From assembly GCA_011774835.1 (NCBI GenBank), contig JAACAK010000067.1:24169-88168 (forward strand): a stretch of DNA of 64,000 bases. The letters run 5' to 3'. Position 1 is the first letter of the stretch. Every line of letters begins with the position of its first letter. This document shows, piece by piece, positions 40,024 through 56,171 of the stretch. Both the position numbers and the translations under genes were made by a program. This DNA comes from Candidatus Kutchimonas denitrificans (lineage in GTDB: Bacteria > Gemmatimonadota > Gemmatimonadetes > Palauibacterales > KS3-K002). A model generated the notes under the pieces. The model worked only from the letters and a program-made list of their open reading frames with translations, did not search any database and was not told where the DNA came from.

Positions 40024-40584
40024 ATGAGAGCCGCCGCCGCAGCGATCGCGGGATTGCTCCTCGCCCTGGCCGCCTGCAGCGACAGCAACGAGGCGCCGCT
40101 GGTGGCCGAAGAGATCTTGCGGCTGAACGAGCGGGCGAACCGCGTCGCCATCGGACTCGAGCACTACGTGGCGTCCGAAGGCATCCGGCGCGCCAAGGTC
40201 GTTGCCGACACGGCGTTCTTCATCGAAGAAGAGTCGCTGATCGAGCTTCGGGACATGGAAGTGACCTTTTACGATGAGGACGGCAAGGAGACCACGTTTC
40301 TGACGGCACGCGAAGGCACGTACGATTGGGAGACCGGGAACATGACGGCCAGGCATGACGTGGTCGTCGTCAAGCGCGAGGAAGGGCGCCGGATAGAGAC
40401 TTCGGTCATGTACTACGAGCGACCGGAGGACCGGATCTGGAGCGATGTCCGGACCACGATGTACGAAGAGGATGGAACGATCGTCGAGGGGACGTCCTTC
40501 ACGTCCAATTCGGGGATGGACAGGGTCGAGCTGACGGAACCAAGCGTCATCCGACGCGGCAGCCAACCCCGGTCCGAAGAGTGA
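40024..40584 (+). CDS. lptC: LPS export system protein LptC (membrane-anchored/lipoprotein-like)
   Basis: ~185 aa with an N-terminal anchor (…LLLALAACSDS…). LptC/OstA-type β-jellyroll size and character. Conserved position kdsD-kdsC-lptC-lptA-lptB. Confidence 0.7.
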   Translation: MRAAAAAIAGLLLALAACSDSNEAPLVAEEILRLNERANRVAIGLEHYVASEGIRRAKVVADTAFFIEEESLIELRDMEVTFYDEDGKETTFLTAREGTYDWETGNMTARHDVVVVKREEGRRIETSVMYYERPEDRIWSDVRTTMYEEDGTIVEGTSFTSNSGMDRVELTEPSVIRRGSQPRSEE

Positions 40585-42051: not shown

Positions 42052-43230
42052 GTGGAGAGCCTCGACCTTCGCAGCTTCGTCGTGGAGCTGCCGGCCCATG
42101 AAGCTCCGCTGCTCATCGCGTTGCGCGAGATCCTACTGCGCGCCGACGAGGCCGGCCGCATCGACAAAGGCCAGCTGGTCGAGGGCTTTCGCGAGTCGTA
42201 CCTGCTCCACTACGGCCGCGTGGCACAAGCCGGCTCACCCGAAAGCCGGCGGCTGTTCGAAATTCGACGCATGACGACCGAACAGGTCGACAGCTATTTG
42301 AGCGAGCAGATCCTCGCCCGCCTGGAGGCCGAGGGTCTGCTCGAGCAAAACGGCGATGAGCCCGGAGCCCGACTGGTCCTGTCACCCACGATCCGGAGCG
42401 ATGTGGGTCGGGACCGGACCGACATCCAGCAGCTGCTGGATCGGGAGATCGAAAAGCGGTTGCTCGCCCCCGAGGAGGAGCCGGAGCCCCGCCGGATCGT
42501 TCCCGATGGCAGTCGCATTGCGACCGATGGGCTGGTGAAGGTCTACAAGCGTCGGCGCGTCGTGGATGACGTCGACCTGAGCGTGAGGCAAGGCGAGATC
42601 GTGGGTCTCCTGGGACCCAATGGAGCCGGAAAGACCACGACGTTCTACATGATCGTGGGGCTCGTCGCACCCGACGCCGGCGAGGTCTTTATCGACCAGC
42701 GGCCCTTGTCGCACGTGCCGATGTACCGGCGAGCACGTCTCGGTATCGGTTACCTGTCACAGGAGCCATCGGTCTTCCGAAAGCTGACCGTAGAGGAGAA
42801 TATCGAGGCCATCCTGGAGACACTGTCCATTTCGGAAGAGGAGAAGTCCGAGCGGCTCGAATCGCTGCTCGACGAGCTGTCGATCAAGCACCTGAGAGAG
42901 AACCGAGCGTACTCGCTGTCGGGCGGTGAGCGGCGGCGCCTGGAGATCACACGCGCCCTGGTGACCGATCCCAAGTTCATGCTCCTCGACGAGCCGTTCG
43001 CCGGCGTCGACCCCATCGCGGTGGATGATATCCAGCGCATCGTGGCCGACCTGAAGCATCGCGGCCTGGGCGTGCTGATCACCGATCACAACGTACGTGA
43101 GACACTTTCGATCACGGACCGTGCCTATATCATGTTCGATGGGAAAATCCACATCGAGGGCACGTCCGAGGAACTGGTTAACGATCCGCAGGCGCGTAAG
43201 TTATATTTAGGTGAGGATTTTCGCCTGTAG
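42052..43230 (+). CDS. lptB: LPS export ABC transporter ATPase LptB with a ~150-aa N-terminal extension
   Basis: C-terminal 240 aa align with LptB (…[34 protein letters not shown]…[11 protein letters not shown]…[11 protein letters not shown]…). No in-frame ATG/GTG/TTG is available near the canonical LptB N-terminus, so the upstream 150 codons are read as part of the protein. Confidence 0.8.
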
Positions 43231-43245: not shown

Positions 43246-44685
43246 ATGAAAGTCGGCCTACAACAAAGCGTTAAACTCGGGCAGGAGCTGAGGATCAATC
43301 CACGCCTGTACCAGGCGATGGACCTGCTGTATATGCCGCTTCTCGATCTGCAGCAGCATCTCAAGCAGGAGCTGGTCCAGAACCCATTCCTCGAGATGGT
43401 GGAGCCCAGCGAGGATCCTGCCCTGGAAGAGAACGCCGAGGAGACCAAGGAGGACGAGAACGAGGTCGATTGGGAGGACATATTGCTCGACGGCCTCGAT
43501 GGCGGCGGTCGGCGCGAGGAATACGAGGAGAAGGAGTACTACGAGCCTACCGCGGTGGCGACGCGCGACCTGTACGATCACCTTCACGACCAGATCGCAC
43601 TGCTTCGGCTCGAGCCCCGCCAGGTGATGGTCGCGGAAGAGATCATCGGGAACATCGACGAGACCGGCTTCCTGACCTGTCCGTTGGAGCAGGTCGTCGA
43701 ATCACTCAACAACTTCCTGGACAGCGAAGAGGCGCGAAACGCGGGGTTCGGGGAGGAGCCTGTGTTCACGGTGGAAGAAGTCGAGGAGGTTCTGAAGATC
43801 ATACAGAACCTCGATCCCGCCGGGATCGCCGCGCGAAATCTCAGGGAGTGCCTGCTGCTCCAGTTGCGCGAGGCCGAGCTGGAAGACGGGGTCGTGTTCG
43901 ACATCGTGGACAAGCACTTCGACCAGCTGGTCAATCACCGCTGGGCGGAGATCTCGAAGGAGCTGGGTGTCAGTCCGCAGGAGGTACAGGCGGCGGCCGA
44001 CGAGATCGCGAAGCTGGACCCGAAGCCGGGCCTGCAGTATTCGAGCGGCGAGGGCAACTACATCATACCGGACCTGGTGGTGGAGAAGGTCGGTAGCGAG
44101 TACATCGTGTTCCACAACGACACGGTCTTGCCACGACTTCGCCTGTCGCGTTCGTACCGAGAGGTGGCGAGAGACAAGTCGAAGTTCAAAGGCGAGAACA
44201 AGGAGTTCATCTCCAACAAGCTCAACAACGCCAACTGGATGCTCCAGGCGATCGAGCAGCGGCGTCAGACGATGCTGAAGGTCATGAACTTCATCGTGGA
44301 CCGGCAGCGCGACTTCTTCGAGGAGGGCGTCGAGCACCTGAAGCCCCTGACCCTGCGCGAGGTCGCCGAGGTCATCAACATGCACGAGTCCACGGTCTCG
44401 CGGGTGACGAACCAGAAGTACGTGCAGACGCCGCGCGGCGTTCTTCCGCTCAAGTTCTTCTTCTCCAGCGGTCTTTCCACCGACTCCGGTGAGGACGTCT
44501 CGGCACGCGGCATCAAGGCGCGGATCGAGAAGCTGGTGGATGAGGAGGACACGAAGAAGCCCCTCACGGATCAGGCGATCGTGGACATCCTGAAGCGAGA
44601 GGGAATCAACATCGCGCGCCGCACCGTAGCGAAGTACCGCGACCAGCTGGGTATCCTTTCAGCTCGCATGCGCAAGCGAGTATGA
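43246..44685 (+). CDS. rpoN: RNA polymerase sigma-54 factor
   Basis: Gln/Leu-rich region I, acidic region II, and the C-terminal HTH plus RpoN box (…ARRTVAKYR…). Confidence 0.92.
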   Translation: MKVGLQQSVKLGQELRINPRLYQAMDLLYMPLLDLQQHLKQELVQNPFLEMVEPSEDPALEENAEETKEDENEVDWEDILLDGLDGGGRREEYEEKEYYEPTAVATRDLYDHLHDQIALLRLEPRQVMVAEEIIGNIDETGFLTCPLEQVVESLNNFLDSEEARNAGFGEEPVFTVEEVEEVLKIIQNLDPAGIAARNLRECLLLQLREAELEDGVVFDIVDKHFDQLVNHRWAEISKELGVSPQEVQAAADEIAKLDPKPGLQYSSGEGNYIIPDLVVEKVGSEYIVFHNDTVLPRLRLSRSYREVARDKSKFKGENKEFISNKLNNANWMLQAIEQRRQTMLKVMNFIVDRQRDFFEEGVEHLKPLTLREVAEVINMHESTVSRVTNQKYVQTPRGVLPLKFFFSSGLSTDSGEDVSARGIKARIEKLVDEEDTKKPLTDQAIVDILKREGINIARRTVAKYRDQLGILSARMRKRV

Positions 44686-45668
44686 GTCGCGCCATCGCTA
44701 CCCACGAAGAGGCGCCCGCCAAGGTGGAGGTCGACGCGGAGCTCGCCGACAACTTTTCCGTCGTTATTCCCGCCTTCAACGAAAGCGACAACATCCCCGA
44801 GCTATTCCGGGAGATCGAGGCGACCTTCCGCGAGCACGGGCTGGACGGAGAGGTCATCCTGGTAGACGATGGATCGAGCGACGACTCGAGCGAACTGGCG
44901 CGCCGCGAGGGAGCCCGGTTTCGCCGCTTCAAGCTCGAGCGCCACAAGCGGAATCTGGGCAAGACGGAAGCGTTGCTCACCGGGGCCCGGGCGGCGACGA
45001 CGGACTGGCTGGTCCTGTTCGATGCGGATCTGCAGCACAGCCCGGGCGAGATCCCGCGGCTCCTGGCCGAGGCGGCGAAAGGCTACGATATCGTCTGCGG
45101 CCGCAAGGTGGGCAAGTACGAGAAGCGGTTGGTCTCCGGCATCTACAACTGGATGTCGCGCAAAGCGTTCCGCGTACCCGCGCGCGATCTCAACTCGATC
45201 AAGATCTTCCGCACCCGGGTCCTCGATGACGTACAGCTGCGGCACGATTGGCACCGATTCTTCGTGGTGCTGGCTCACGCTAAGGGCTACAAGGTCGGCG
45301 AGCTCGACGTGACCCTGCATCCTCGGCGAAGAGGGGAAACGAAATACGGCGGTTCGAGCCGCGTTTTCGTCGGCCTGCTCGACCTCGTGTCCGTCTGGTT
45401 CCTGCTGATCTTCAGCCGCAAGCCGATGCTCCTGTTCGGGTTCACCGGTCTGTTGCTGGTGGGGCTCGGGCTGTTGGTGGGGATCACAGCGATCGTTCTG
45501 CGGTTGCTGGGTCACGGCTTCCGGCCGCTGCTCACGCTGGTCGTGCTGTTGGGGATCATGGGTGTGTCGCTGTTCGGCTTCGGCTTCGTCGCCGAGCTGA
45601 TCGCGACGTTGCGGGCCGAGGTGGATGATCTGAGGGAATCGCTGCGGGAGAGCCGGAAGGACAGCTAG
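44682..45668 (+). CDS. GT2-family polyprenyl-phosphate glycosyltransferase (GtrB/ArnC/DPM1-like) with C-terminal TM helices
   Basis: …SVVIPAFNESDNI…VDDGSSDDS…DADLQHSP… GT-A DxD architecture and two C-terminal TM helices. Start forms an ATGA overlap with the rpoN stop. Confidence 0.85.
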   Translation: MSRAIATHEEAPAKVEVDAELADNFSVVIPAFNESDNIPELFREIEATFREHGLDGEVILVDDGSSDDSSELARREGARFRRFKLERHKRNLGKTEALLTGARAATTDWLVLFDADLQHSPGEIPRLLAEAAKGYDIVCGRKVGKYEKRLVSGIYNWMSRKAFRVPARDLNSIKIFRTRVLDDVQLRHDWHRFFVVLAHAKGYKVGELDVTLHPRRRGETKYGGSSRVFVGLLDLVSVWFLLIFSRKPMLLFGFTGLLLVGLGLLVGITAIVLRLLGHGFRPLLTLVVLLGIMGVSLFGFGFVAELIATLRAEVDDLRESLRESRKDS

Positions 45669-45682
45669 CAGGTGGAGGAAGG

Positions 45683-47299
45683 GTGGGGGAATCTGTGGCC
45701 GCGGAAGGTCGAGACAGGCGCAGGCTGACCGGACCTCGGGCGACCTGGGGAATTCTCGCCGTTATCGTGGCGGCCCATGTGAGCGTCGCCGCGTTCGTCT
45801 TCGATCCCAAACCGTTCGTCGGCGGAGACAACGCCGGGTACCTGATCCTGGCGGAATCGATCCAGACGGGGCAGGGCTATCGTGACCTCCACCTGCCCGG
45901 TACTCCGCGTCATGCGACAAGTCCGCCCCTCTATCCCCTCGTTCTGGCCCTGGCGCGCGGGGTGGGGAGCGGGCTGCTGGGCTTCAAGGCGCTCTCCATC
46001 GTGTTTACGGCGCTTTCCGTCATACTGCTCTACTTCCTGGCGCGACGTCGGCTGGGCGCGACGGCAAGCCTGGCCGTCGCCGCCGCCTTCGCCATCAATC
46101 CGGTCCTGCTCTATTACTCGCACTGGACGCTGCCCGAACCCCTTTTCGTGCTCCTGGCCCTGGCCGCCCTCTGGTCGGCGGAGACCTCCCGGCTGCTGGG
46201 CAGGTCGGAGGAGTCGACGGATTCCGGCGTGCGACTGGCCTGGGCCGCAGGTGCCGCCGCCCTCGCCAGCCTGGCGTATCTGACCCGTGGGGGAGCGATT
46301 CCGTTAGTCCTCGCCATCCTGATCGTACTGGGGTGGCGCCGCCGTTGGCGCGCGTTGGCAGCCAGCACAATCGTCGCCGCCCTGGCGGTCGGCGGTTGGC
46401 AGGCCTGGCGGGCGCTGGCGGTGCCGCGAGAAGCCGCGGCATCCGGCGCACACCTGCTGTCGGACCCCGCGAACCCGGACAGGCTGGCGGGCCCGGGCGA
46501 GCTGGTCACACGCTTCATCGACAGCGTCCGTGTCTACCTGGTCGACCTGACCCCCCAATCGATCGCGGGGGTGCCCGTGGGAGGTGGCGTCAACCCGCTG
46601 GCCCTCATGTGCGGCCTACTGGTGATCGCGCTGGCCCTGGTGGCGTGGATCCGCGAAGTGCGGCGCGTGCGCCCGGTGGAGTTCTACGCGGCTCTCTACG
46701 CGCTCTGGTTGTTCCTGTGGCCCTGGAACGAGCGCCGCCTGCTTCTGGCTCTGCTACCCGTTCTGTACCTGCTGGCGGCGCAGGGGCTGCTCTGGTGCCT
46801 CGATTTCGCACGTTTCAAGAGCCACGCGTGGGCGGTACCGGCTTTCGCAGCGCTTCTCGTTATGGTGGGTGTTCCCCATCATGTCCGGGCGCTGAGCTTC
46901 GCCGCCGACTGCCGCCGGCTATATCGAGAAGGGGACCGCCTGGCCTGCTATCCTCCGCCGTGGCGCGGCTTCTTCCAAGCCGCGGCATGGGCGCGGGCGA
47001 ACACACCCGAAGGATCGACGATCGTCAGCCCGGAGCCGCGATTGTTCTATCTCGTTTCCGACCGCCAGGGGGACGAGTATCCCCCCACGGCCGACACGGA
47101 CTCGATGCTCGCCTTTCTCGATTCGGTCTCTGCCGACTACGTTGTGGTCGCCGCGGTAAGCCCCACGACCTTCCGGTACCTCGTACCCGTGTTGCGCGCC
47201 ATGCCCGAGAGGTTCGAACCGGTTCACGCGGAAGGCGAAGGCACCTCGGCCGCCTATCTCGTCGCGTATTTGACCGCCCGGCCGCAGGAGAGTCCCTGA
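45683..47299 (+). CDS. GT-C superfamily membrane glycosyltransferase (ArnT/PMT-like), paralogue 1
   Basis: ~11 predicted TM helices with an acidic first-loop motif (…FDPKPFVGGDNAGY…) and a C-terminal soluble domain. Clear paralogue of 53869..55443. Confidence 0.75.
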   Translation: MGESVAAEGRDRRRLTGPRATWGILAVIVAAHVSVAAFVFDPKPFVGGDNAGYLILAESIQTGQGYRDLHLPGTPRHATSPPLYPLVLALARGVGSGLLGFKALSIVFTALSVILLYFLARRRLGATASLAVAAAFAINPVLLYYSHWTLPEPLFVLLALAALWSAETSRLLGRSEESTDSGVRLAWAAGAAALASLAYLTRGGAIPLVLAILIVLGWRRRWRALAASTIVAALAVGGWQAWRALAVPREAAASGAHLLSDPANPDRLAGPGELVTRFIDSVRVYLVDLTPQSIAGVPVGGGVNPLALMCGLLVIALALVAWIREVRRVRPVEFYAALYALWLFLWPWNERRLLLALLPVLYLLAAQGLLWCLDFARFKSHAWAVPAFAALLVMVGVPHHVRALSFAADCRRLYREGDRLACYPPPWRGFFQAAAWARANTPEGSTIVSPEPRLFYLVSDRQGDEYPPTADTDSMLAFLDSVSADYVVVAAVSPTTFRYLVPVLRAMPERFEPVHAEGEGTSAAYLVAYLTARPQESP

Positions 47300-47300
47300 C

Positions 47301-48455
47301 ATGCCAGACACTCCCGTCGTACTGATTCTGTTCGGCACTCGACCGGAAGCGATCAAGCTGGCACCCGTCTTCAGGGCGCTGGCCGGACGCAGCGAAGCGG
47401 TGGAGCTACGAGTGGTATCGACGGGCCAGCACGACGAGCTGCTGGAGGACGCGCTGGGGAGTTTTGACATGGAGGTTGAAGAGAGCCTGGCTATCATGCG
47501 TCCCGATCAGGACTTGTACGATATTGGCGTAGGCTGTCTCGAGGGTCTGAGGGCGACCCTGCGCCGGGTGAAGCCGGACGTGGTGGTGGTGGAGGGAGAC
47601 ACGGCGACGGTGTTTTTCGGAGCGCTCGCCGGGTTCTACGAGGGCGCCGAGGTGGCCCACGTGGAGGCGGGGCTACGGTCCGGGGATCGCCGGGCCCCCT
47701 TTCCCGAGGAGATTTATCGGAGACTCACCGATGTGCTGACGGACCATTACTTCGCGCCGACGGCGGGGGCGAAGCGGAACCTGTTGAGGGAGGGAGTAGC
47801 GGCAGAGCGGGTGAACGTAACCGGCAACACGGTGATCGATGCGGTCCAGGCGCTGGCGGGCCAGCGGCGGCCGATCGACAACGCCGAGTTGAAGCGATGC
47901 ATCGAGTCGGGACGTCGTCTGGTCTTGATCACGGCGCATCGGCGTGAGTCGTTTGGTGAGCCGATCCGGGAGGCTTTCGGTGCGCTCCGGACGCTGGCGG
48001 AAGAGCATCCCGATGACCTGTTCGTTTATCCGGTGCACCCGAACCCGAACGTGAGGCAGCCGGCGCAGGAGATGCTGGGGGGCGTGTCGAACGTGAGGCT
48101 CCTGGAGCCGCTGTCGTATTCCGACCTGGTGCAGGTGCTGTCGGCGGCATGGATCACGATAACGGATTCGGGCGGCATCCAGGAGGAGGCGCCTTCGTTT
48201 GGCGTACCGGTCCTGGTGATGCGGGAGGTGACCGAGCGTCCTGAAGGGGTCGAACTGGGCGTCGCCGAGCTGGTGGGTACATCCCGGGATCGAATACTCG
48301 AACGGGGAGGCGCGCTGTTGGACGACGACGGGGAGCGGGCGCGCATGGCCACAGCCGGGAATCCGTACGGTGACGGTCAGGCGGGAGCGCGGATCGCCGA
48401 CATCCTGTTGCACCGAATCTTGGGAACGCGGCGGCTCACGGAGGATTGGGCCTGA
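47301..48455 (+). CDS. wecB: UDP-N-acetylglucosamine 2-epimerase (non-hydrolysing)
   Basis: …VVLILFGTRPEAIKLAPV…, …VHVEAGLRS…, …ITDSGGIQEEAPSFGVPVLVMR… epimerase_2 family hallmarks. Confidence 0.88.
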   Translation: MPDTPVVLILFGTRPEAIKLAPVFRALAGRSEAVELRVVSTGQHDELLEDALGSFDMEVEESLAIMRPDQDLYDIGVGCLEGLRATLRRVKPDVVVVEGDTATVFFGALAGFYEGAEVAHVEAGLRSGDRRAPFPEEIYRRLTDVLTDHYFAPTAGAKRNLLREGVAAERVNVTGNTVIDAVQALAGQRRPIDNAELKRCIESGRRLVLITAHRRESFGEPIREAFGALRTLAEEHPDDLFVYPVHPNPNVRQPAQEMLGGVSNVRLLEPLSYSDLVQVLSAAWITITDSGGIQEEAPSFGVPVLVMREVTERPEGVELGVAELVGTSRDRILERGGALLDDDGERARMATAGNPYGDGQAGARIADILLHRILGTRRLTEDWA

Positions 48456-49570
48456 ACATAGTCCTGCAGTGCCTGTACTATCCGCCCGAGGTGGGCGGAC
48501 TGGAAAGTCACGTCGCGGGTCTGGGAGAAGGGCTCGCCCGACGGGGCCACGAGGTCCGCATGCTCACGTCTCGCTCGAGGCCCGATCTGCCCAGGAGGGA
48601 GGCGCTGGCCGGGGTGCAGGTCCGGCGGGTCTGGATGCCGAGTCGGTCGCCGCTGGGCTGGCTCGCACACACGGTGGCGTCGATCTTCGCGCACGCCAAC
48701 TGGGCCCGGAGCGCGGATATCCTGCACGCCCATACCTTCGCCAGCGCCGTGCCGGGCATGATAAGCCGCAAGCGCTACGGCGCCCCTCTCGTCGTCACCC
48801 TCCATACGTCGCATTTTCTGATGCGTGCCCCCAAGCCGGGCTGGCGAGCCGTGTTTCGGCGCATCATCGAGTCGGCGGACTACTTGCTGGCCACGAGCGA
48901 GGAGATCCGGCAGGTGGCGCTGGCCATCTCTCGGCATCCGCGCTCCGAGGTGATGACCAACGCGGTGGATACCGATCGGTTCGCACCCCGCACGGGCCCC
49001 CTGGAGGGCGACAGGCGGCAGATCATCGTTCCGCGTCGCCTGTTCCCGAAGAACGGAGTCGAGTATTTCGTACGCGCTCTGCCGCTCATTGCAGCCGATC
49101 TGGATGTCGAGGCCCGGGTCGTCGGCGATGGTCCGGAGCGCGAACGGTTGACCTCGCTGGCCGCCGAGCTGGGCGTTTCCGATCGGATACGGTTCCTGGG
49201 AGCCCGCTCGAACGAGGAGATGCCCGGCCTTTTGCGCGAGGCCGAGCTCGCGGTCATCCCGTCGCTGATTGAGGCGACGTCTATCGCGGCCCTGGAAGCG
49301 ATGTCGTGCGGCTTACCGGTGGCGGCCTCGGCTGTGGGCGGCTTACCCGAGATCATCGACGAGAGGGTCGGGTCGCTGTTCGAGCCGGCGAACCCGCAGG
49401 CTCTGGCGGACGCGGTGGCGAGCCTGCTCCGTCGCCCGGATCTGCGCGATCTGGGTGCCGAGGGCAGACGGCGCGTGGTGGCCAACTGGAGCCTCGATCG
49501 CATGGTCGAACGTCATCTGGAGATCTACAACGAGCTGATCGATGAAGCGAAAGCGAAAGAACAGGGGTAA
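48446..49570 (+). CDS. GT4-family glycosyltransferase (GT-B fold)
   Basis: N-terminal …YYPPEVGGLESHV… and C-terminal E-X7-E-type motif (…PSLIEATSIAALEAMSCGLPVAAS…). Confidence 0.85.
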   Translation: MGLNIVLQCLYYPPEVGGLESHVAGLGEGLARRGHEVRMLTSRSRPDLPRREALAGVQVRRVWMPSRSPLGWLAHTVASIFAHANWARSADILHAHTFASAVPGMISRKRYGAPLVVTLHTSHFLMRAPKPGWRAVFRRIIESADYLLATSEEIRQVALAISRHPRSEVMTNAVDTDRFAPRTGPLEGDRRQIIVPRRLFPKNGVEYFVRALPLIAADLDVEARVVGDGPERERLTSLAAELGVSDRIRFLGARSNEEMPGLLREAELAVIPSLIEATSIAALEAMSCGLPVAASAVGGLPEIIDERVGSLFEPANPQALADAVASLLRRPDLRDLGAEGRRRVVANWSLDRMVERHLEIYNELIDEAKAKEQG

Positions 49571-51983
49571 CGAGGCGGCGGCGACCCCGACGGCCGCCGG
49601 GGGCTCCATCGGGGAAGAGGGGTGGCTGCCGCGCTGGGCGCCCTGGGTCGCCTTCGGAGTGATCGTTGCGTTTCTCTTCCGGGAGTTCATCGTCTCCCGC
49701 GGCATGCTGTTCGGCACGGACGTGGCCGCGCTCGGCTATTTCGCCCGGCACTTCTACGCCGAGATGATGAGAGCGGGCACTTTCCCGCAGTGGAACCCTC
49801 TCCTGTTCGGCGGCCTTCCGTTCGTCGACGCGATGCACGGCGACATCTTCTATCCGACGACCGTGCTCAAGTTCATCATGCCGGTGCACCGGGCGATGGG
49901 CTGGAAGCTCGTGCTGCACATCTTCCTGGCCGGCGCTTTCACCTACGGCTGGCTGCGCCATCTGCGGATCAGCCGATCGGTCTCGGTCTGGGGCGGCATC
50001 GCGTACATGCTGGCTCCGGTCATGGTCACGCTGGTGTACCCGGGGCACGACGGCAGGCTGTTCGTCTCGGCGCTGACGCCGCTCGCGCTGTGGGCCACGG
50101 ACTGGGCCGTGACCCGGGGCGGCGCCTGGCGGTTCGCCCTGCTGGCGTTCGCGGTCGCCCTGCTGATCTTCACCGCCCACATGCAGCTGGGCTACTACAC
50201 GACCTGGGCGATGTTCGTCCTGGCTGTGTACCGGGTGATCGAGATGCGCCGGGCTGGCACGTCGGCCGGCGTTCTGGCGGGGCGATTCACCGGCTTCGCC
50301 ACCGCCGGAATCGTCGGGGCGCTGTTGATCGGCGCGGTACAGCTGTGGGCCCCGCTTCGCTACCTGACGACGTACTCGCAGCGGGTGGAGAAAACGATCG
50401 AGGCCGAGGAGGAGTCGGCTTACGCACGGGCGACCTCGTGGTCGCTGCATCCCGAGGAGGCGTTTTCGCTCGTCGTTCCGGAGTTCGTCGGCGCCAACGT
50501 CCAGACCGGCGAAGGCGCTGTGAACACGTACTGGGGCAGAAACGCCTTCAAGTTGAACCACGAGTACGGGGGTTTCATCCCGCTGTTGCTGCTACCCCTG
50601 GCGTTCTTCAGCCGGCGCCGACGCGGCGAGGCCTGGTTGTTCACCGGCATCGCCATCGGCTGTCTGATCTACGCCCTCGGATCGACGACACCGCTCTTCT
50701 ACCTCTTCTACTGGCTCGTTCCCGGCGTGAAGCTCTTTCGGGCGCCCAGCAGCATCATGTTCGTCTTCGCCATCGCGGTGATCACGGCGGCGGCGATCGG
50801 GCTCGACGGCATGGAGCGAGCCGAGGAGCGGGCGGAGAAGGCACGGCGGGCGGGCCTCTACCTATGGGGGGCCGCAGGGGTGTTCCTCTTGCTGGCGTTG
50901 CTCGGATCGACGGGTGTGCTCACCGACCTGTGGGTGTCGATCCTCTACAGCGACATCAGCCAGGCCAAGGTTGCCGCGCTGGACGCCAACCTGCCGAACA
51001 TCCAGCGGGGTCTATGGATCACCCTACTGTTGAGCGGGCTGGTCGCCGGGGCCTGGCATCTCTACCGCCGCGGCCAGATCCCGAGGCCCGCCTGGATCCT
51101 CGTCCTCGCGCTGCTGGCGGTTCTCGACCCACTGCGGGTCGATCCGCAGTTCATCCAGGTCGTGGCGCCGGGACGGATCTACCCTCGGGACGACGTCACC
51201 GACTACATGGTCGGGCAACAGAGAGAGGCGGAGCCGTTTCGCGTCTTCGCCGTAGGGGGAACCGGTTACCAGACGAACCACTTCGCCTTCTTCGGACTCG
51301 AGGAGGTGACGGGGCATCACGGCAACGAGATCGGTCGTTACCTGGAGCTGGTGGACTTTCAGCGACACGGCGGACAAGCGATACGTATCGTGCGGCTCCT
51401 GAACGCGCGTTACCTGGTAAGCGGCGCGCCGATCCAGGCGCCGGGACTGATCGAGGCCTATCGAGGTCAGCGGGCCATCGTGTATCAGATGATCGGAGCG
51501 TTCCCCCGGGCTTTTCTCGTACCGAACTATGAAGTCGCCGCGGATACCGCCGCCCTGGAGCGGCTGCTCGATCCGGGGTTCGATCCGGCTCGGAACGTCG
51601 TGCTAGAGCAAACCCCCGAGCTCCAGCCTGCGCCTGACGCCCGTGGCAGCGTCCGCTGGCTGGAGCGGGGGATCAACAGCCAGGCGCTGGAGACCGAGAG
51701 CACCGGTCCGATGATATTGGTGGTCACCGAGAACTACTACCCGGCCTGGCAGGTGGAGATCGACGGGACACCGGCGGACCTGCTGCGCGCCGATCACACG
51801 CTCCGGGCCGTCGCGGTCCCGGCGGGCACGCATCGAATTCGCTTCTTCTACCGATCGCCCCTGTATCGGGCCGCCGCCCTGACAACGCTCGGGGCCACGT
51901 TGCTGGCGCTGGCAGTGGTCGTGGTGACGCTCGTCCGCCAGCGGCGCGCCGCGGGAGGCTCCACGCCAGCGGGGAGCCCGTAA
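49542..51983 (+). CDS. YfhO-family membrane protein (GT-C-type glycosyltransferase acting on envelope polymers)
   Basis: 813 aa, polytopic N-terminal 400 aa plus a large C-terminal periplasmic domain and a final TM helix. Family-level resemblance to the B. subtilis YfhO architecture. Confidence 0.65.
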   Translation: MKRKRKNRGNEAAATPTAAGGSIGEEGWLPRWAPWVAFGVIVAFLFREFIVSRGMLFGTDVAALGYFARHFYAEMMRAGTFPQWNPLLFGGLPFVDAMHGDIFYPTTVLKFIMPVHRAMGWKLVLHIFLAGAFTYGWLRHLRISRSVSVWGGIAYMLAPVMVTLVYPGHDGRLFVSALTPLALWATDWAVTRGGAWRFALLAFAVALLIFTAHMQLGYYTTWAMFVLAVYRVIEMRRAGTSAGVLAGRFTGFATAGIVGALLIGAVQLWAPLRYLTTYSQRVEKTIEAEEESAYARATSWSLHPEEAFSLVVPEFVGANVQTGEGAVNTYWGRNAFKLNHEYGGFIPLLLLPLAFFSRRRRGEAWLFTGIAIGCLIYALGSTTPLFYLFYWLVPGVKLFRAPSSIMFVFAIAVITAAAIGLDGMERAEERAEKARRAGLYLWGAAGVFLLLALLGSTGVLTDLWVSILYSDISQAKVAALDANLPNIQRGLWITLLLSGLVAGAWHLYRRGQIPRPAWILVLALLAVLDPLRVDPQFIQVVAPGRIYPRDDVTDYMVGQQREAEPFRVFAVGGTGYQTNHFAFFGLEEVTGHHGNEIGRYLELVDFQRHGGQAIRIVRLLNARYLVSGAPIQAPGLIEAYRGQRAIVYQMIGAFPRAFLVPNYEVAADTAALERLLDPGFDPARNVVLEQTPELQPAPDARGSVRWLERGINSQALETESTGPMILVVTENYYPAWQVEIDGTPADLLRADHTLRAVAVPAGTHRIRFFYRSPLYRAAALTTLGATLLALAVVVVTLVRQRRAAGGSTPAGSP

Positions 51984-51984
51984 C

Positions 51985-52956
51985 GTGGATGAGCGTGTCC
52001 GGCGCGGGGCAGGGTGGGCCCTCCGCCTCGCCCTCACCCTGCTGGTCACCTATTTCATCTTTCGGTCGCTCCGCGTTTCGTGGGCCGAGCTGGCGGAGAC
52101 GGATCTGGCCCGTTGGCAACCGGCCATCGCGCCGCTCGCCGCCTCCCTGGCTGCGCTCCTCTTCGTCTTCGCCTACCTGGTCGCGCTCTGGGCTCGTATG
52201 GTGACCGGTCTCGGTGGACCGGTGCTGCGTCTGGGTGCGGCGATTCGCATTTTCTTTCTGGCAAACCTGGGCCGCTACATACCAGGCAAGGTCTGGCAGC
52301 TGGCGGGGCTCACGTATCTGGCGGGGAAGAGGGGTGTCAGCATTCCCATCGCCTCGTCATCAGCGGTGCTGAGCCAGGTCTATTCGCTGGGCGCCGCGGC
52401 CGCCGTGGCCGCAATCGGGCTGCTGTTGACTGGAGTGGCACAGCTGCCAGCCGGAACCGTTCCGTTCGCGGTGGCGCTGGCGGCGGCGGTGATCGCGGTG
52501 ACGACCGTACCTCCCGTTCTGCGTCTGCTGCTGCGGTTGGTCTTCCGGTTCAGCCGTCGGGGCGAGCTCGCGCCCGACCTCGACAGGTGGTTCGGCTTTC
52601 GCTGGCTGTTCGCCTACCTGCCGGGGTGGATCGGCTACGGTCTCGCGTTCCTGCTGCTTTGCGAATCGTTTCCGAACCTGCCGCCCGTTGCGCCGCTGGC
52701 GGCGATCGGTAGTTTCGCGGGGGCCTATTTTCTGGGTTACGCTGCCGTATTCGCGCCGGCGGGCGTGGGCGTGCGGGAAGGCGCCCTCGCCTTTCTGCTC
52801 GCGCCGGCCCTGGGCGCGGCCGAGGCGACCGTCCTGGCCGTTTTCGCGCGCGTTTGGATGACGGTCGCGGAACTGGGACCGGCCGCATGGGCGGGGATCC
52901 ATACGGTCCTCGGGGCGGAGGAAGGCGAGAGCGAGACACGAGAGCATGGCAGCTGA
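51985..52956 (+). CDS. UPF0104 'flippase-like' membrane protein (MprF-C-terminal-type lipid flippase domain)
   Basis: 8-TM protein with a …GRYIPGKVWQLAG… motif typical of UPF0104/LPG-synthase TM proteins, which commonly pair with Dpm1-like GT2 enzymes. Confidence 0.7.
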   Translation: MDERVRRGAGWALRLALTLLVTYFIFRSLRVSWAELAETDLARWQPAIAPLAASLAALLFVFAYLVALWARMVTGLGGPVLRLGAAIRIFFLANLGRYIPGKVWQLAGLTYLAGKRGVSIPIASSSAVLSQVYSLGAAAAVAAIGLLLTGVAQLPAGTVPFAVALAAAVIAVTTVPPVLRLLLRLVFRFSRRGELAPDLDRWFGFRWLFAYLPGWIGYGLAFLLLCESFPNLPPVAPLAAIGSFAGAYFLGYAAVFAPAGVGVREGALAFLLAPALGAAEATVLAVFARVWMTVAELGPAAWAGIHTVLGAEEGESETREHGS

Positions 52957-53674
52957 GTACGGTCGCACACTGGTCGTGATGCCCACGTACAACGAGAAGG
53001 AGAACCTTCCGATCGTCGTACCGCGCGTATTGGCGCAGCAGCACGAGATCGAGGTGCTGATCGTCGATGACAATTCGCCAGACGGGACAGGAGAGGTCGC
53101 GGACCAGATGGCGGGGCGCGACGATCGGATCCACGTCATGCATCGACCGGGCAAGCTGGGGCTGGGCACGGCCTACATCGCGGGGTTCAAGTGGGCGCTG
53201 GAGCGCGACTACGAGTACGTGTTCGAGATGGACTCGGATTTCTCTCACAACCCGGATCACATCCCCGAGTTCCTGGAGGCGGCCCAGGAATACGACCTGG
53301 TGCTCGGCTCGCGCTATTTGCGGGGTGTCACCGTGATCAACTGGCCCATGTCGCGTCTTCTGCTCAGCTACTTCGCCAATAAGTACGCGCGCATCGTGAC
53401 CGGATTGCCCTTCAGCGACACGACGGGCGGCTTCAAGTGCTACCGCCGGGAGGTCCTGGAGGAGATCGACCTCGACAAGATCACGTCCGAAGGGTACTCG
53501 TTCCAGATCGAGACGACGTTCCGGGCCTGGCGCAGAGGCTTCAAGGTCGGTGAGATCACCATCGTCTTCAGCGACCGGACCGAGGGCGCCAGCAAGATGA
53601 GCGGCCGCATCATCCGGGAGGCGGTGTGGAAGGTGTGGTGGCTGCGGCTGCTTCGGATCTTCCGCAGGATTTGA
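52946..53674 (+). CDS. Polyprenol-phosphate mannose/hexose synthase (Dpm1/Ppm1-like GT2, soluble)
   Basis: …LVVMPTYNEKENL…VDDNSPDGT…EMDSDFSHNPDHI… GT2 signature closely resembling Dpm1 family members. No C-terminal TM helices. Confidence 0.85.
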   Translation: MAAEYGRTLVVMPTYNEKENLPIVVPRVLAQQHEIEVLIVDDNSPDGTGEVADQMAGRDDRIHVMHRPGKLGLGTAYIAGFKWALERDYEYVFEMDSDFSHNPDHIPEFLEAAQEYDLVLGSRYLRGVTVINWPMSRLLLSYFANKYARIVTGLPFSDTTGGFKCYRREVLEEIDLDKITSEGYSFQIETTFRAWRRGFKVGEITIVFSDRTEGASKMSGRIIREAVWKVWWLRLLRIFRRI

Positions 53675-53776
53675 GTCACCCGCAGTAGCACGATCAGGTT
53701 GATCTCCGCAATCCAGCCCGTAAGGACGTAATCGGACCACGCCCTCCGGGGTAGCAGTGGAAGCGCGAACCGTTAA

Positions 53777-53805
53777 GTTAGGGCTTCAAAAATGCAGCCC
53801 TTAAT
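53777..53805 (+). promoter_or_regulatory. Small stem-loop in the only sizeable intergenic gap of the glycosylation cluster
   Basis: AGGGCT-tcaaaaatgc-AGCCCT, extendable to about 9 bp with one bulge. No U tail. Confidence 0.25.
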
Positions 53806-53868
53806 CCACACTCCGACAACCACCTACGGGCGAGCGGCCGATCGGCGCGACGGCCCGGTGCGGACCTG

Positions 53869-55443
53869 ATGGCTCGACAGCCCTCCGAGCCCGGCAAAAC
53901 ACCGGCCCGGCTGGGACCCCTCCAGCACCCGCTGATCTGGCTCTGTGCCGCGCACGTGCTGCTGGCCGTCCTGCTGTTCGACCCGAAGCCGTTCCTGGGC
54001 GGCGACAACTACTGGTACATGCTCCTCGGCGAGAGCTTGCGGACCGGGGAAGGGTACCGTGACCTGTGGCTTCCCTCCACACCGGCTCACACTCGGTACC
54101 CTCCTCTCTATCCCGCGTTGCTGGCGTTCCTCGGGCTTATCAAGGTCTCACCGGTCCTGTTCAAGCTCTTCTCCCTGGCCTGCACGACCGCGGTCACGGC
54201 GCTGGTCTTTCTGCTGACCGAGCGGCGCACGGGGGACCGTCAGCTTGCCCTGCTCGCCGGTGGTCTGGCAGCCGCCGCGCCGATTCTGGTCGAGTACGCT
54301 CATTGGGTGCTGTCGGAGCCGCTGTTCACGGTCCTCGTGCTGGTCGCCGTCTACGCGTTCAGCCGGGATGATGCGGCCGGGGACGTGAAGATCTTCGCGG
54401 TGGGGACTGGAGCGGCGATTCTGGCCAGCCTGGCGCGCAGCGCCGGCTACCCGCTGCTGCTGGCCATCCTGGTCAGCCTGGCGGCGCGTCGGCGGTGGAA
54501 GCGCTGCGCGATCTTCCTGGGTGCGGTCATCGTGGTGCTGGGCAGCTGGTGGCTGCGTAACCGGCTGGCGGTATCGGGCGACCTACCGTACACCCAGTGG
54601 ATCTTGTTCCGTGATCCGTACCGTCCAGAACTCGGGACTGTGGGCGCCGCCGAGCTGGTCGGGCGCTTCTTCCACAACCTGCAGGCCTACGCGCTGCGCG
54701 TACTGCCTCAATCCATGGCGGGACGCGACGTGAGCGGATTCGCCGCCGGGGTGCTGGGGACCGTCGCCACCGCGCTCCCGACCGCCGCGGCGCTTCGCAA
54801 CCTGAAGCAGCTCAGGGTTACCGAGCTGTTCTTTATCTTCTACATGGGGTTGATCCTGCTGTGGCCTGAGGCCTGGTCGGACCAGCGGCTTCTGCTGCCC
54901 GCTTTGCCCGTCATCTTCGTTCTGCTGGTCGAAGGACTGGCGTGGGTGGCGGGGAAGGTCGATCGGCAGGGCAGGCGCGCGGGAGCCGTCACGTTCGTCG
55001 TGGGGGCCTTATTGGTCGCCGTAGCGGTATTGGGGAATCTGAGACTGGCGGCACGCGAGCTGGATTGCGCCCGGGCTTACTGGCGAGGGAACCGCTTCGC
55101 CTGCTACCCGGCGGCGGTGGTGGATTTCATCCGAACCGCGAACTGGACGGCCCAGAACACGGACCGGCAGGCCATCGTCGTCAACCGTAAGCCGCAGATC
55201 TTCTACTGGTACGGCCGACGCCGGGGGGACAATTATCCTTACACGGAAGACACGGATTCGGTGATGCATTTCCTGGACTCACTGGAAACCGACTACGTGA
55301 TCGTGGACCGGTGGAGCGCGACGACCTTCCGTTATCTGATCCCGGCCATCCAGGCGAACGCCGATCGATTCGGCCTCGCTCATCAGGAAGGCCAACCCGC
55401 CACCTTCTTGCTCACCTACTCCCGGTCCGGAGGTGGCCGATGA
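53869..55443 (+). CDS. GT-C superfamily membrane glycosyltransferase (ArnT/PMT-like), paralogue 2
   Basis: Same architecture and conserved blocks as 45683..47299 (FDPKPFLGGDNYWY…GYRDLWLPSTPAHTRYPPLYP…; C-terminal …DTDSVMHFLDSLETDYVIV…TFRYLIPA…). Confidence 0.75.
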   Translation: MARQPSEPGKTPARLGPLQHPLIWLCAAHVLLAVLLFDPKPFLGGDNYWYMLLGESLRTGEGYRDLWLPSTPAHTRYPPLYPALLAFLGLIKVSPVLFKLFSLACTTAVTALVFLLTERRTGDRQLALLAGGLAAAAPILVEYAHWVLSEPLFTVLVLVAVYAFSRDDAAGDVKIFAVGTGAAILASLARSAGYPLLLAILVSLAARRRWKRCAIFLGAVIVVLGSWWLRNRLAVSGDLPYTQWILFRDPYRPELGTVGAAELVGRFFHNLQAYALRVLPQSMAGRDVSGFAAGVLGTVATALPTAAALRNLKQLRVTELFFIFYMGLILLWPEAWSDQRLLLPALPVIFVLLVEGLAWVAGKVDRQGRRAGAVTFVVGALLVAVAVLGNLRLAARELDCARAYWRGNRFACYPAAVVDFIRTANWTAQNTDRQAIVVNRKPQIFYWYGRRRGDNYPYTEDTDSVMHFLDSLETDYVIVDRWSATTFRYLIPAIQANADRFGLAHQEGQPATFLLTYSRSGGGR

Positions 55444-56171
55444 GGGATGCGGTCAAGCCGCAGGTCGCCAGCGACCCGATCGGTGAGGAGACGCTGCAAA
55501 TCATGCGGCACGCCAGCCGCTACAACCGCTGGATCGCCGAGCTCATACAGCCGTATCTGGGGGACAGGGTTCTCGAGGTCGGGGCGGGAATCGCCAACAT
55601 GACCCCGTTCCTGCTGCCGCGCGAATACGTGGTGGTCACCGACCCGGACCCGGCCTACCTCGCCGTACTGAAACAACGGATGGGCGATGAGCCCACGGTA
55701 GTGGTGCGCTCCCTGAAGCTTCCCTCGATCTCCGAAGACTGGAAAGCCGAGCGGCTCGATACCGCGGTGCTGCTGAATATCCTCGAGCACGTCGAGGAGG
55801 ATGTGGAGTCGCTCGTCAGCCTGACGGACATCCTGATGCCAGGCGGCCGGATCGTCGTTTTCGTTCCGGCGGTCCCGGCGCTCCACGGCTCATTGGACAG
55901 GGCGCTCAGCCATCATCGTCGCTATTCGAAGGAGGAGCTGTGGGTGAAGCTGGAGAGCGCGGGCCTGGAGGTCGAGGAGCTTCGCTACTGCAACTTCGTC
56001 GGGATGTTCGGATGGTGGTTCTATAGCCGTGTGATCCGCCGGCAGGTGCTGCCGGCGTTGCAGGTGCGGCTGTTCGATCTGATGGTTCCGCTGCTTTCGC
56101 GTCTCGAGAGGCTGGTTCACCCTCCCATCGGCCAATCGCTGCTGGCGGTGGCGCGGAAGAGCCCGCGCTAG
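55440..56171 (+). CDS. Class I SAM-dependent methyltransferase
   Basis: Motif I …VLEVGAGIANMT… and post-I acidic residue. ATGA overlap with the preceding GT-C stop. Confidence 0.8.
   Translation: MRDAVKPQVASDPIGEETLQIMRHASRYNRWIAELIQPYLGDRVLEVGAGIANMTPFLLPREYVVVTDPDPAYLAVLKQRMGDEPTVVVRSLKLPSISEDWKAERLDTAVLLNILEHVEEDVESLVSLTDILMPGGRIVVFVPAVPALHGSLDRALSHHRRYSKEELWVKLESAGLEVEELRYCNFVGMFGWWFYSRVIRRQVLPALQVRLFDLMVPLLSRLERLVHPPIGQSLLAVARKSPR

Follow-up and report, generated by a model that had tools for sequence, protein, structure and literature searches.

The DNA analysed here, a 64,000-nucleotide stretch of the Candidatus Kutchimonas denitrificans genome (contig JAACAK010000067.1; hereafter the window), carries a compact glycosyltransferase cluster directly downstream of a kds-lpt-rpoN array, and although machinery of this kind is known, the way it is arranged here is undescribed. 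The families, folds and conservation of its products uphold the combination of lipid-linked-sugar synthase, flippase and GT-C glycosyltransferase that had been recognized in an earlier sequence-only reading. We consider it highly probable that the system operates in this generic manner, with sugars being loaded on a lipid carrier, flipped and attached to an envelope molecule, the acceptor being left open; the sugar donors, the role of the flippase and the acceptor are what we infer beyond this scheme. No paper on any member of the cluster was found in the literature searched.

Gene organization of the locus

The upstream array lies on the plus strand and comprises kdsA (37660-38493; Pfam DAHP_synth_1), a kdsC-like HAD gene (38453-39061; Hydrolase_3), kdsD (38991-40022; SIS+CBS), lptC (40024-40584; LptC), a long lptA-like gene (40586-42049; LptD_N), lptB with an N-terminal extension (42052-43230; ABC_tran) and rpoN, coding for sigma-54 (43246..44685; Sigma54_AID, Sigma54_CBD and Sigma54_DBD). 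Direct reading of the ORFs places the stop codon of rpoN over the start codon of the next gene, in a 4-nt ATGA overlap at 44682-44685. Past rpoN there are nine genes, all on the plus strand: GT2a (44682..45668); GT-C1 (45683..47299), after a 14-nt gap; wecB (47301..48455), after 1 nt; GT4 (48446..49570), overlapping the preceding gene by 10 nt; a putative YfhO-family GT-C of 813 aa (49542..51983), overlapping by 29 nt; a UPF0104 gene (51985..52956), after 1 nt; GT2b (52946..53674), overlapping by 11 nt; GT-C2 (53869..55443), beyond a 194-nt gap (53675..53868); and a class I SAM-dependent methyltransferase (55440..56171), which overlaps GT-C2 by 4 nt and is translationally coupled to it. The ten same-strand genes of the earlier reading are reached only if rpoN is counted; its account of the junctions as overlaps or gaps of at most 14 nt with a single exception stands, save that the exception measures 194 nt and not 195. 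Its gene identities were borne out by Pfam and NCBIfam profile searches. The genes of the cluster are probably co-transcribed.

Predicted cytoplasmic-face enzymes

GT2a is a membrane-anchored GT-A protein with C-terminal TM helices (hydrophobic segments at 226-304), which matches the Pfam Glycos_transf_2 profile (E 1.4e-30) and aligns over its full length with the solved ArnC (residues 24-314, E 4e-29), as well as with the solved GtrB sll0501 (E 1e-16). This ArnC/GtrB/CsbB-type architecture predicts a polyprenyl-phosphate sugar synthase that would load the sugar of a nucleotide sugar onto polyprenyl phosphate at the cytoplasmic face. An assignment as an ArnC orthologue was rejected, as GT2a scores 112.1 bits against the cut-off of 529 for the equivalog NF007986. 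GT2b is a soluble GT-A protein of the Dpm1/DPMS-like type (Glycos_transf_2, E 1.9e-35); a scan of its sequence yielded no hydrophobic segments, its residues 8-231 match the catalytic domain (25-244) of the P. furiosus DPMS 5mlz (E 6.2e-30) and it falls below the cut-off of all curated equivalog models. As a predicted polyprenyl-phosphate hexose synthase, it would likewise load polyprenyl phosphate, probably while docked on the UPF0104 protein encoded by the overlapping neighbour. No other cluster protein is as well conserved (59-88% identity across the phylum). Its constant neighbours are UPF0104 and YfhO, and on the comparative data it is not specifically the partner of GT-C2.

WecB, the non-hydrolysing UDP-GlcNAc 2-epimerase that makes UDP-ManNAc, scores 415.7 bits against the TIGR00236 equivalog cut-off of 210.15 (Epimerase_2, E 3.5e-101). 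The adjacent GT4, a cytoplasmic glycosyltransferase with Glycos_transf_1 and Glyco_transf_4 domains, requires a TTG start to retain the N-terminal GT4 glycine loop and is publicly annotated in a shorter, 336-aa form. Its closest solved relatives are BshA, PimB', MshA and PimA. Among NCBIfam models it partially matches those for GlcNAc-PG synthase and monoglucosyl-DAG synthase, all of its matches being far under the equivalog cut-offs; the GlcNAc-PG synthase model aligns with no more than the last 100 residues, at 61 bits versus 480. GT4 is 60-62% identical in loci L062-L064, and in the Palauibacter loci L027, L043 and L044 the WecB-GT4 pair is inverted and relocated yet stays together, a pattern in which GT4 appears evolutionarily linked to WecB. 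The UDP-ManNAc from WecB would then be used by GT4 on an acceptor at the cytoplasmic face.

GT-C glycosyltransferases and the UPF0104 protein

All three large membrane proteins have the GT-C fold, as had been proposed. GT-C1, with a C-terminal periplasmic alpha/beta domain, scores 32.2 bits with PMT_2, above the cut-off of 26.1, and its paralogue GT-C2 (39% identity over 508 aa, E 8e-100) scores 20.9 bits, below it. The earlier reading had staked its case on these enzymes not modelling as something else, and GT-C1 and the 813-aa protein gave confident models with no matches other than GT-C enzymes that depend on polyprenyl-P/PP-sugars. Foldseek ranks OST/AglB first, and the best reciprocal TM score of the predicted GT-C1 structure is with ArnT (0.61/0.61). 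A GGD(N) motif at 47-50, after TM1, is invariant in close homologues and kept across 90% or more of a broader alignment, and fits the conserved acidic loop motif described in GT-C enzymes (PMC8035078). A multi-pass GT-C fold whose first extracytoplasmic loop carries a conserved acidic motif places these proteins in the GT-C superfamily. At the family level, neither GT-C1 nor GT-C2 matches the curated ArnT models, which leaves them outside ArnT (GT83) by sequence. PMT (GT39) membership was also rejected: GT-C1 has no match to PF02366, GT-C2 reaches 18.7 bits, under the cut-off of 22.7, and a Pfam search of the GT-Cs detected no MIR domain; the NCBI label 'glycosyltransferase family 39' on their homologues is based on PMT_2 only. 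This PMT_2-type family is large, a search at E<=1e-30 giving 4,881 representative clusters; we found no close relative that has been characterised or solved, the nearest PDB sequence match being yeast Pmt1 (E 0.008).

The 813-aa protein, the universal GT-C of the cluster, carries a beta-sandwich domain in its C-terminal part and ends in a TM helix. The window protein itself reaches 20.9 bits versus a cut-off of 28.5 with YfhO (PF09586), over its C-terminal 60 aa only; the profile is matched by 28/28 aligned family members at E<=1e-3 (best 5.4e-16) and NCBI names several orthologues 'YfhO family protein'. We propose that it would transfer sugars to an envelope acceptor in the periplasm, and that the two accessory PMT_2-type GT-Cs may do the same in the window's clade. 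The methyltransferase coupled to GT-C2 (Methyltransf_12, 36.8 bits, cut-off 30) could add a methyl decoration.

The UPF0104/LPG_synthase_TM protein matches PF03706 over residues 11-290 of 323 (41.5 bits, cut-off 33.4) and has at least 6 hydrophobic segments. The family includes the MprF flippase domain, 'PplT', GpgF and the C-terminal domain of AglD, and the substrates of its experimentally backed members are phospholipid/glycolipid head groups, not polyprenyl-P-sugars (PMC5898192, PMC12713373, 10.1101/2022.03.11.483950). Pfam searches found no GtrA-like domain among the cluster proteins, and no gap within the cluster is big enough for such a gene; the UPF0104 protein is thus the candidate for flipping the lipid-linked sugars, and/or a membrane anchor for GT2b. 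A GtrA-type gene may nonetheless lie elsewhere in the genome.

Conservation across Gemmatimonadota

Among the 57 + 3 related loci from Gemmatimonadota, essentially all that have sufficient flanking sequence show the same gene order, which makes the arrangement more than chance. The upstream kds-lpt order is the same in relatives, and the full order kdsA-C-D-lptCAB-rpoN-GT2a-...-YfhO-UPF0104-GT2b is kept in several lineages, including Palauibacter and Longimicrobiales. The cluster thus adjoins lpt/rpoN in relatives, the point on which the earlier reading had made itself vulnerable, and on comparative evidence it appears to be a constant distal section of the kds-lpt-rpoN array throughout the phylum. 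Its conserved core consists of GT2a, WecB, GT4, YfhO, UPF0104 and GT2b, and the PMT_2-type GT-C with the methyltransferase is an accessory module. Most lineages have one PMT_2-type GT-C; only the window's clade has it in duplicate, and Longimicrobiales-type clusters have none. In the ancestral state there is at most one, after GT2a. The view of two duplicated GT2 plus ArnT-like GT-C pairs with YfhO as a third GT-C is hence reversed by the comparative data: YfhO belongs to the core, its orthologues being only 29-47% identical across lineages sharing the core order.

A neighbour-joining tree of the PMT_2-type GT-Cs recovered three clades, with the single GT-C of L049 in the GT-C2 clade; GT-C2 stands nearer than GT-C1, a clade-specific paralogue, to the single post-GT2a GT-C of other lineages. 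A tblastn map showed the GT-C2/methyltransferase pair to be missing at its position in L004, L009, L011 and L049, and the pair is best described as a clade-specific paralogue, apparently lost in L004, L009 and L011. Further genes occur in or beside the cluster in particular loci: a PlsC-type acyltransferase, absent from the window, directly follows GT2b in L062, L063 and L064; Palauibacter-type clusters have, between UPF0104 and GT2b, a lipoprotein that combines cadherin/Ig-like repeats with a LamG domain; and in L017 and the window Big_2/Kelch genes lie next to the cluster or break it up.

Relationship to known systems

The CsbB/GtcA/YfhO-related systems of Firmicutes, which glycosylate LTA, WTA and SCWP (Rismondo et al. 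2021, PMC8035078), similarly combine a membrane-anchored GT-A making C55-P-sugar with a YfhO or PMT_2-type GT-C transferring it outside, and in one described variant the GT-A is soluble and works with a distinct membrane protein (PMC8035078). However, the present host is diderm, has LPS genes and lacks teichoic acids; UPF0104 takes the place of a GtrA/GtcA or Wzx flippase gene; and the array, with two synthases, up to three GT-Cs, WecB/GT4 and a methyltransferase, is physically continuous with kds-lpt-rpoN. GT2a has the architecture of ArnC and GtrB and aligns with both; GT-C1 is ArnT-sized, with a TM core and a C-terminal periplasmic domain, and LPS genes adjoin. The cluster differs from the GtrA/GtrB/Gtr(type) systems of O-antigen glucosylation in lacking GtrA, and from ArnC/ArnT, which modify lipid A with Ara4N, in the failed ArnC equivalog (112 vs 529 bits), the missing ArnT model match and the dispensability of its ArnT-like GT-C in whole lineages. 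Domains of arnA, arnB, arnD, arnE and arnF occur in 0/9 cluster proteins, and the cluster has no unassigned coding space.

In archaea, GT2 + UPF0104 + PMT/STT3-like GT-C is a recognised conserved neighbourhood, with UPF0104 fused to the Dol-P-mannose synthase AglD (PMC5898192). The present cluster shares this triad of DPMS-like GT2, UPF0104 membrane domain and GT-C, and parallels the Haloferax Agl pathway in its AglJ-like first GT, soluble GTs and SAM methyltransferase (PMC3871713); unlike in AglD, the GT2 and UPF0104 are separate overlapping genes in a bacterial diderm setting, and no AglB/STT3 orthologue was identified in the cluster. The gpgSDF operon of Pseudomonas aeruginosa, encoding a GT4, a deacetylase and a UPF0104 protein for GlcN-phosphatidylglycerol (PMC12713373), likewise unites a GT4 with a predicted UPF0104 flippase, whereas the present cluster is without the deacetylase and has YfhO between the two. 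Finally, the mycobacterial PIM/LM/LAM systems (Ppm1, PimA-PimB', PimE and other PPM-dependent GT-Cs) offer cytoplasmic GT4s, a soluble DPMS-like synthase needing a membrane partner and GT-Cs acting outside, a likeness at the family or fold level only and not one of demonstrated orthology, the organism and lipid anchor being different.

Candidate acceptors

On gene context alone, LPS (lipid A, inner core or O-chain) is the single most likely acceptor, a tentative choice that we hold at somewhat less than probable. It is favoured because of the co-directional packing with the Kdo synthesis and Lpt transport genes, and because ArnC is the best full-length solved relative of GT2a and ArnT gives GT-C1 its best reciprocal TM score. 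The distance of GT2a from the ArnC cut-off and the lack of curated ArnT matches for the GT-Cs argue against an LPS/ArnT-type reading. Furthermore, both flanks are syntenic, the TPR_21 gene also recurring, so that the adjacency may reflect general synteny. In E. coli, rpoN is followed by hpf, ptsN, rapZ and npr, none of which is an LPS gene, so that the position after rpoN is weak evidence for an LPS role.

It is possible, though doubtful, that the product is a distinct glycolipid or lipoglycan anchored in the membrane and made along the lines of PIM/LM or glycosylated LTA. Here, WecB and GT4 would put ManNAc on a cytoplasmic-face glycerolipid, UPF0104 would flip it, the YfhO/PMT_2 GT-Cs would extend or decorate it outside with the polyprenyl-P-sugars of GT2a/GT2b, and the methyltransferase, plus an acyltransferase in some lineages, would finish it. 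Mycobacterial Ppm1/Ppm2 pair a soluble DPMS-like GT2 with a membrane partner, which GT2b and its own partner resemble, and the lipid-acting PimA and PimB' are among the nearest solved relatives of GT4. The partial GlcNAc-PG and monoglucosyl-DAG synthase matches of GT4 lean the same way but are far below the equivalog cut-offs. UPF0104 is the predicted flippase of the GT4-made GlcN-PG in gpgSDF (PMC12713373) and the Lys-PG flippase domain of MprF (PMC12713373, PMC5898192). The PlsC-like acyltransferase after GT2b in L062-L064 points to a glycerolipid-based product, but it is missing from the window, whose cluster also has no deacetylase or lipid-synthase gene, and no such Gemmatimonadota glycolipid was found in the literature searched. 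We regard O- (or N-) glycosylation of surface proteins or lipoproteins as unlikely; its analogues would be Ppm1/Pmt of actinobacteria, PgfS/PgfM of streptococci and the Haloferax Agl pathway (AglJ, soluble GTs, AglD, AglS and the AglP methyltransferase). The part list parallels the latter (PMC3871713), Foldseek puts OST/AglB first, PgfS and AglJ models match GT2a and Dol-P-hexose transferase models match GT2b. The Palauibacter-type LamG lipoprotein could be a substrate, and Big_2/Kelch genes flank or interrupt the cluster in L017 and the window, but the candidate substrate genes are lineage-specific and not core, and GT-C1 has neither a MIR domain nor a PF02366 match. Least probable is that the genes form no single system, with independent envelope functions (a housekeeping polyprenyl-P-hexose synthase, a ManNAc-adding polysaccharide GT4 and assorted GT-Cs) sharing the slot between rpoN and a yfgM-like TPR gene. 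The phylum-wide synteny of both flanks, the conservation of GT2b far above that of its neighbours and the variable content (a PMT_2-type GT-C present, duplicated or absent, methyltransferases differing in type and position, and lipoprotein or Kelch insertions) would agree with this; but six core genes in constant order, with overlapping or abutting frames despite the divergence of YfhO, are the usual signature of a functional operon.

Taking the cluster as one lipid-linked-sugar system, a bolder and rather improbable proposal is a phylum-defining, undescribed outer-envelope glycoconjugate: either lipid A/core modified with a methylated group that contains ManNAc, or a lipoglycan independent of LPS. 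Its pathway would employ, in a diderm, a YfhO-type GT-C and an MprF-type (UPF0104) protein that replaces GtrA as flippase or docking partner for polyprenyl-phosphate sugars, and would be co-transcribed with the Kdo, Lpt and sigma-54 genes. If true, it would give YfhO and UPF0104 proteins their first functional assignment in the making of a Gram-negative envelope. Soils and sediments are rich in Gemmatimonadota and, to our knowledge, essentially nothing is known of their envelope chemistry. That the operon has kept its place beside the Kdo, Lpt and rpoN genes in several lineages suggests a core surface structure and not a strain-specific decoration. The cluster is also a test bed for the role of the many YfhO-family GT-Cs in diderm bacteria, and for whether UPF0104/MprF-flippase-domain proteins that stand alone act on polyprenyl-phosphate sugars or on glycolipids.

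Variation around the accessory module

The 194-nt gap before the GT-C2/methyltransferase pair had no match in an Rfam search and contains a 6-bp hairpin at 53780-53801. The GT2b/GT-C2 spacing differs in L008, L012 and L034, as implied by tblastn match starts, which are not exact gaps. Methyltransferase genes of various class I types recur at different positions in the clusters of other lineages; in L059, a distant GT-C homologue that does not lie in an rpoN setting has a methyltransferase-like tblastn match (41% identity) ~1.7 kb upstream.

Organization of the glycosylation cluster

The glycosylation cluster closes a long plus-strand array in a Gemmatimonadota metagenome-assembled genome (MAG; G+C ~65%). 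This array comprises plsX, fabH, fabD, fabG, fabF, ispF, a DedA/VTT protein gene, a Xer-type recombinase gene and pyrG, followed by kdsA, a kdsC-like HAD gene, kdsD, lptC, a long lptA-like gene, lptB, rpoN and then the cluster. Positions 25878-56171 (+) form a ~30 kb block of mostly co-directional envelope and lipid housekeeping genes, running from plsX through the glycosylation cluster, with a complex I operon and a PGM/PMM-family gene (19931-21301) lying farther upstream. Downstream, the strand switches to a Big_2+Kelch gene, a TPR_21 (YfgM-like) gene and housekeeping genes.

Nine same-strand genes follow rpoN (43246-44685) between positions 44682 and 56171. The first, the glycosyltransferase gene GT2a (44682-45668), shares a 4-nt ATGA overlap with rpoN and is followed after 14 nt by GT-C1 (45683-47299) and, after 1 nt, by WecB (47301-48455). 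WecB overlaps GT4 (48446-49570) by 10 nt, which in turn overlaps the gene for an 813-aa YfhO-like protein (49542-51983) by 29 nt. A 1-nt gap precedes UPF0104 (51985-52956), which overlaps GT2b (52946-53674) by 11 nt; a 194-nt gap then leads to GT-C2 (53869-55443), which overlaps the methyltransferase gene (55440-56171) by 4 nt. These junctions, read from the sequence, bear out the co-directional arrangement described in the sequence-only reading, and Pfam and NCBIfam confirmed each of its family names, with qualifications for two proteins. GT-C2 falls under the PMT_2 cut-off, yet is 39% identical to GT-C1 across 508 residues (E 8e-100); the 813-aa protein alone gives a weak YfhO match, and 28/28 of its aligned orthologues match the YfhO model.

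A search for sigma-54 promoters (TGGCAC-N5-TTGC, at most 2 mismatches) returned 33 matches against 48 expected, without enrichment and without a convincing site ahead of the cluster. A sigma-70 and terminator scan of 37.5-57.4 kb performed no better than shuffles and is uninformative on internal promoters, including in the 194-nt gap. This relatively AT-rich gap carries a small hairpin (AGGGCT-N10-AGCCCT, 53780-53801) before GT-C2. The window contains no tRNAs or Rfam families, the hairpin likewise being without an Rfam match. A regulatory RNA in the gap was discarded as a possibility for want of such a match and because the GT2b-to-GT-C2 spacing, judged from match positions, appears different in the related loci L008, L012 and L034.

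Conserved core and accessory module

With a narrowed GT-C alignment as query, we scanned genomes, one for each species, and mapped the window's proteins onto the resulting 57 loci, almost all from Gemmatimonadota MAGs. The PMT_2-type GT-C family as a whole spans 4,881 representative clusters at E<=1e-30. The order kdsA-kdsC-(kdsD)-lptC-lptA-lptB-rpoN-GT2a-GT-C-(WecB)-GT4-YfhO-UPF0104-GT2b was kept in essentially every locus with enough flank, so the linkage to lpt and rpoN on which the sequence-only reading depended is clearly conserved. Among the loci mapped, GT-C2 and the methyltransferase occur only in the window, L008, L012, L017 and L034; they are absent from L004, L009, L011 and L049, where a TPR gene directly follows GT2b.

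A neighbour-joining tree of all GT-C copies resolved three clades: GT-C1-type copies confined to the window's close relatives; GT-C2-type copies, including the single GT-C after GT2a of L049; and a large clade of single GT-Cs after GT2a from other lineages. On this topology, a single PMT_2-type GT-C is the ancestral state, duplicated in the window's clade. Three further loci, recovered via YfhO orthologues (L062 on a 5.4-Mb contig, L063 from Longimicrobiales, and L064), show the order rpoN-GT2a-(methyltransferase)-WecB-GT4-YfhO-methyltransferase-UPF0104-GT2b, followed by a PlsC-type acyltransferase, and no PMT_2-type GT-C was found in them within 10 kb. After GT2b, L063 (14891-16176) and L062 (15150-16435) encode a ~205-aa protein without a family match and then the PlsC/AGPAT-type acyltransferase, the two being fused into one 412-aa protein in L064 (14828-16066).

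Given the distribution of GT-C2 and the methyltransferase, the GT-C tree and the lack of a PMT_2-type GT-C in the last three loci, the conserved core consists of GT2a, WecB, GT4, YfhO, UPF0104 and GT2b. The "ArnT-like" proteins make up an accessory module. The interpretation given in the sequence-only reading is supported in part, comparative genomics having moved its ArnT-like GT-Cs to an accessory position.

Predicted functions of the components

Over its whole length GT2a aligns with both solved ArnC (E 4e-29) and GtrB sll0501 (E 1e-16), and on the ArnC equivalog model it scores 112 bits, far below the cut-off of 529. GT2b matches the catalytic domain of the Pyrococcus dolichol-phosphate mannose synthase (E 6e-30). 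The two are only 28% identical, and hydrophobic helices are C-terminal in GT2a and missing from GT2b. WecB is an equivalog-level match (416 bits), and the closest solved relatives of GT4 are BshA, PimB', MshA and PimA. WecB and GT4 behave as a pair, staying together though inverted and relocated in the Palauibacter loci L027, L043 and L044. The public annotation starts GT4 at ~48560 (336 aa), losing the 'PPEVGG' loop that is conserved at the N-terminus of the GT4 fold; an alternative TTG start at 48446 (374 aa, with the 10-nt wecB overlap) better fits Pfam boundaries and homologues.

Sequence-profile searches of the PDB found Pmt1 alone (E 0.008) for the GT-C family and nothing for the YfhO-like family or UPF0104; fold comparison was therefore needed. 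The GT-C1 model, built with 23 homologues, reached pLDDT 91.3 and pTM 0.91; Foldseek ranked oligosaccharyltransferases (OSTs) top by E-value, and the best reciprocal TM score was with ArnT (0.61/0.61). On this predicted structure we regard a GT-C fold as certain and place GT-C1 no more finely than in that superfamily. The model of the 813-aa protein (pLDDT 78) matches GT-C enzymes exclusively (AftD 19.5, STT3B 18.5, Pmt4 17.9). After TM1, all close GT-C homologues carry GGD(N) at 47-50, a motif still conserved to at least 90% when the alignment is widened; the YfhO-like family shows D60 and HGD (99-101) without variation. These residues agree with the acidic loop motif that characterizes GT-C enzymes (PMC8035078).

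In multi-component transmembrane glycosylation, the C55-P-sugar made by a GT-A enzyme is moved by a flippase, and a GT-C enzyme transfers the sugar outside (Rismondo et al., PMC8035078); in one variant, a soluble GT-A works with a separate membrane protein (PMC8035078). The parts of the cluster fit this scheme, differing in that there are two synthases and that UPF0104, overlapping GT2b, stands in place of a GtrA-type gene, of which the cluster has none and no room for one. UPF0104 is the flippase domain of MprF and, in the archaeal Dol-P-mannose synthase AglD, forms the C-terminal domain; archaea have it together with an AglD-like GT2 and a PMT/STT3-like GT-C (PMC5898192). It has also been predicted to flip GlcN-PG, a glycolipid made by a GT4 enzyme (PMC12713373). 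From these precedents, we propose that UPF0104 would anchor GT2b and/or flip the lipid-linked sugar.

Literature searches returned nothing describing the cluster or Gemmatimonadota LPS chemistry, and nothing relevant on Gemmatimonadota lipid A, glycolipids or YfhO. This kind of system is already known; what is new is its YfhO-centred version in a diderm, UPF0104 at the flippase position (a predicted role), two synthases in one cluster, the optional module of PMT_2-type GT-C and methyltransferase, and a cluster fixed in its place behind rpoN in the phylum's sampled lineages.

Candidate acceptors

On contextual evidence, LPS would be the leading single candidate for the acceptor of the cluster's sugars, because the cluster continues the Kdo and Lpt genes without a break in one co-directional array and the architectures of GT2a and GT-C1 are ArnC- and ArnT-like. 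Against LPS, the cluster's proteins do not pass the curated Arn models, no further arn genes are present, and the E. coli genes downstream of rpoN are not LPS genes. Nearly as plausible as LPS is a distinct glycolipid or lipoglycan, favoured by the kinship of GT4 with lipid-acting enzymes, by the precedents for UPF0104, and by the PlsC-like acyltransferase of L062-L064. Protein glycosylation also stays in consideration: PMT and OST are top fold matches, the part list of the cluster runs parallel to the Haloferax Agl pathway (PMC3871713), and the Palauibacter clusters include a lipoprotein with cadherin/Ig repeats and LamG.

This lipoprotein is encoded between UPF0104 and GT2b, on the same strand, in L027 (17912-19903), L047 (14675-16465), L036 (11714-13498) and L028 (14232-16181). 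Besides a lipobox (...GC GGGD), the protein contains three repeats of cadherin/Ig-like type (Big_9, He_PIG, Cadherin_4) and, at its C-terminus, a Laminin_G_3 domain. It might serve as a substrate or bind glycans as an accessory protein.

Carotenoid glycosylation of the CruG-like type, exemplified by Gemmatimonas oscillol rhamnosides, was rejected on two grounds: scores on the CruG model are 33-44 bits, its cut-off being 600, and GT-C enzymes act outside the cytoplasm.

Methyltransferases and other features

When the methyltransferases of different lineages were tested for orthology, most proved only ~24% identical, over the generic class I core alone. The sole clearly related one is a match in L059, 41% identical to the window's enzyme, which lies ~1.7 kb upstream of a distant GT-C homologue outside the rpoN context; this suggests that GT-C and methyltransferase form a unit able to move between contexts. 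Distant PMT_2-type GT-C homologues away from rpoN in L059 (8278-14835) and L060 (8146-15427) share a recurring neighbourhood of a MurQ-like SIS protein, a class I methyltransferase, the GT-C and a large PD40/Tricorn + Omp85 protein. Within the Palauibacter cluster of L027, a TylF-family (macrocin/sugar O-methyltransferase-like) gene (17295-18302, -) sits beside the inverted WecB-GT4 pair, consistent with methylated sugars in the product.

The Big_2 + Kelch-repeat ORF (56199-56924, -; 241 aa) is convergent to the cluster and lacks an obvious signal peptide; in L017, two Kelch-like genes (~10560-11900) lie on the same strand as the cluster and separate GT2b from GT-C2. LptB (42052-43230, +) has 392 aa, the usual size being ~240 aa, with an N-terminal extension of ~155-170 aa, without a Pfam match, ahead of ABC_tran (residues 172-317). 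This extension looks conserved in the phylum, as the annotated orthologues in L062-L064 likewise have 399-409 aa. The LptA-like protein (40586-42049, +) has 487 aa (orthologues 430-601 aa; E. coli LptA ~185 aa), with just one weak LptD_N/OstA match and a C-terminal tail rich in Pro, Thr and Asp.
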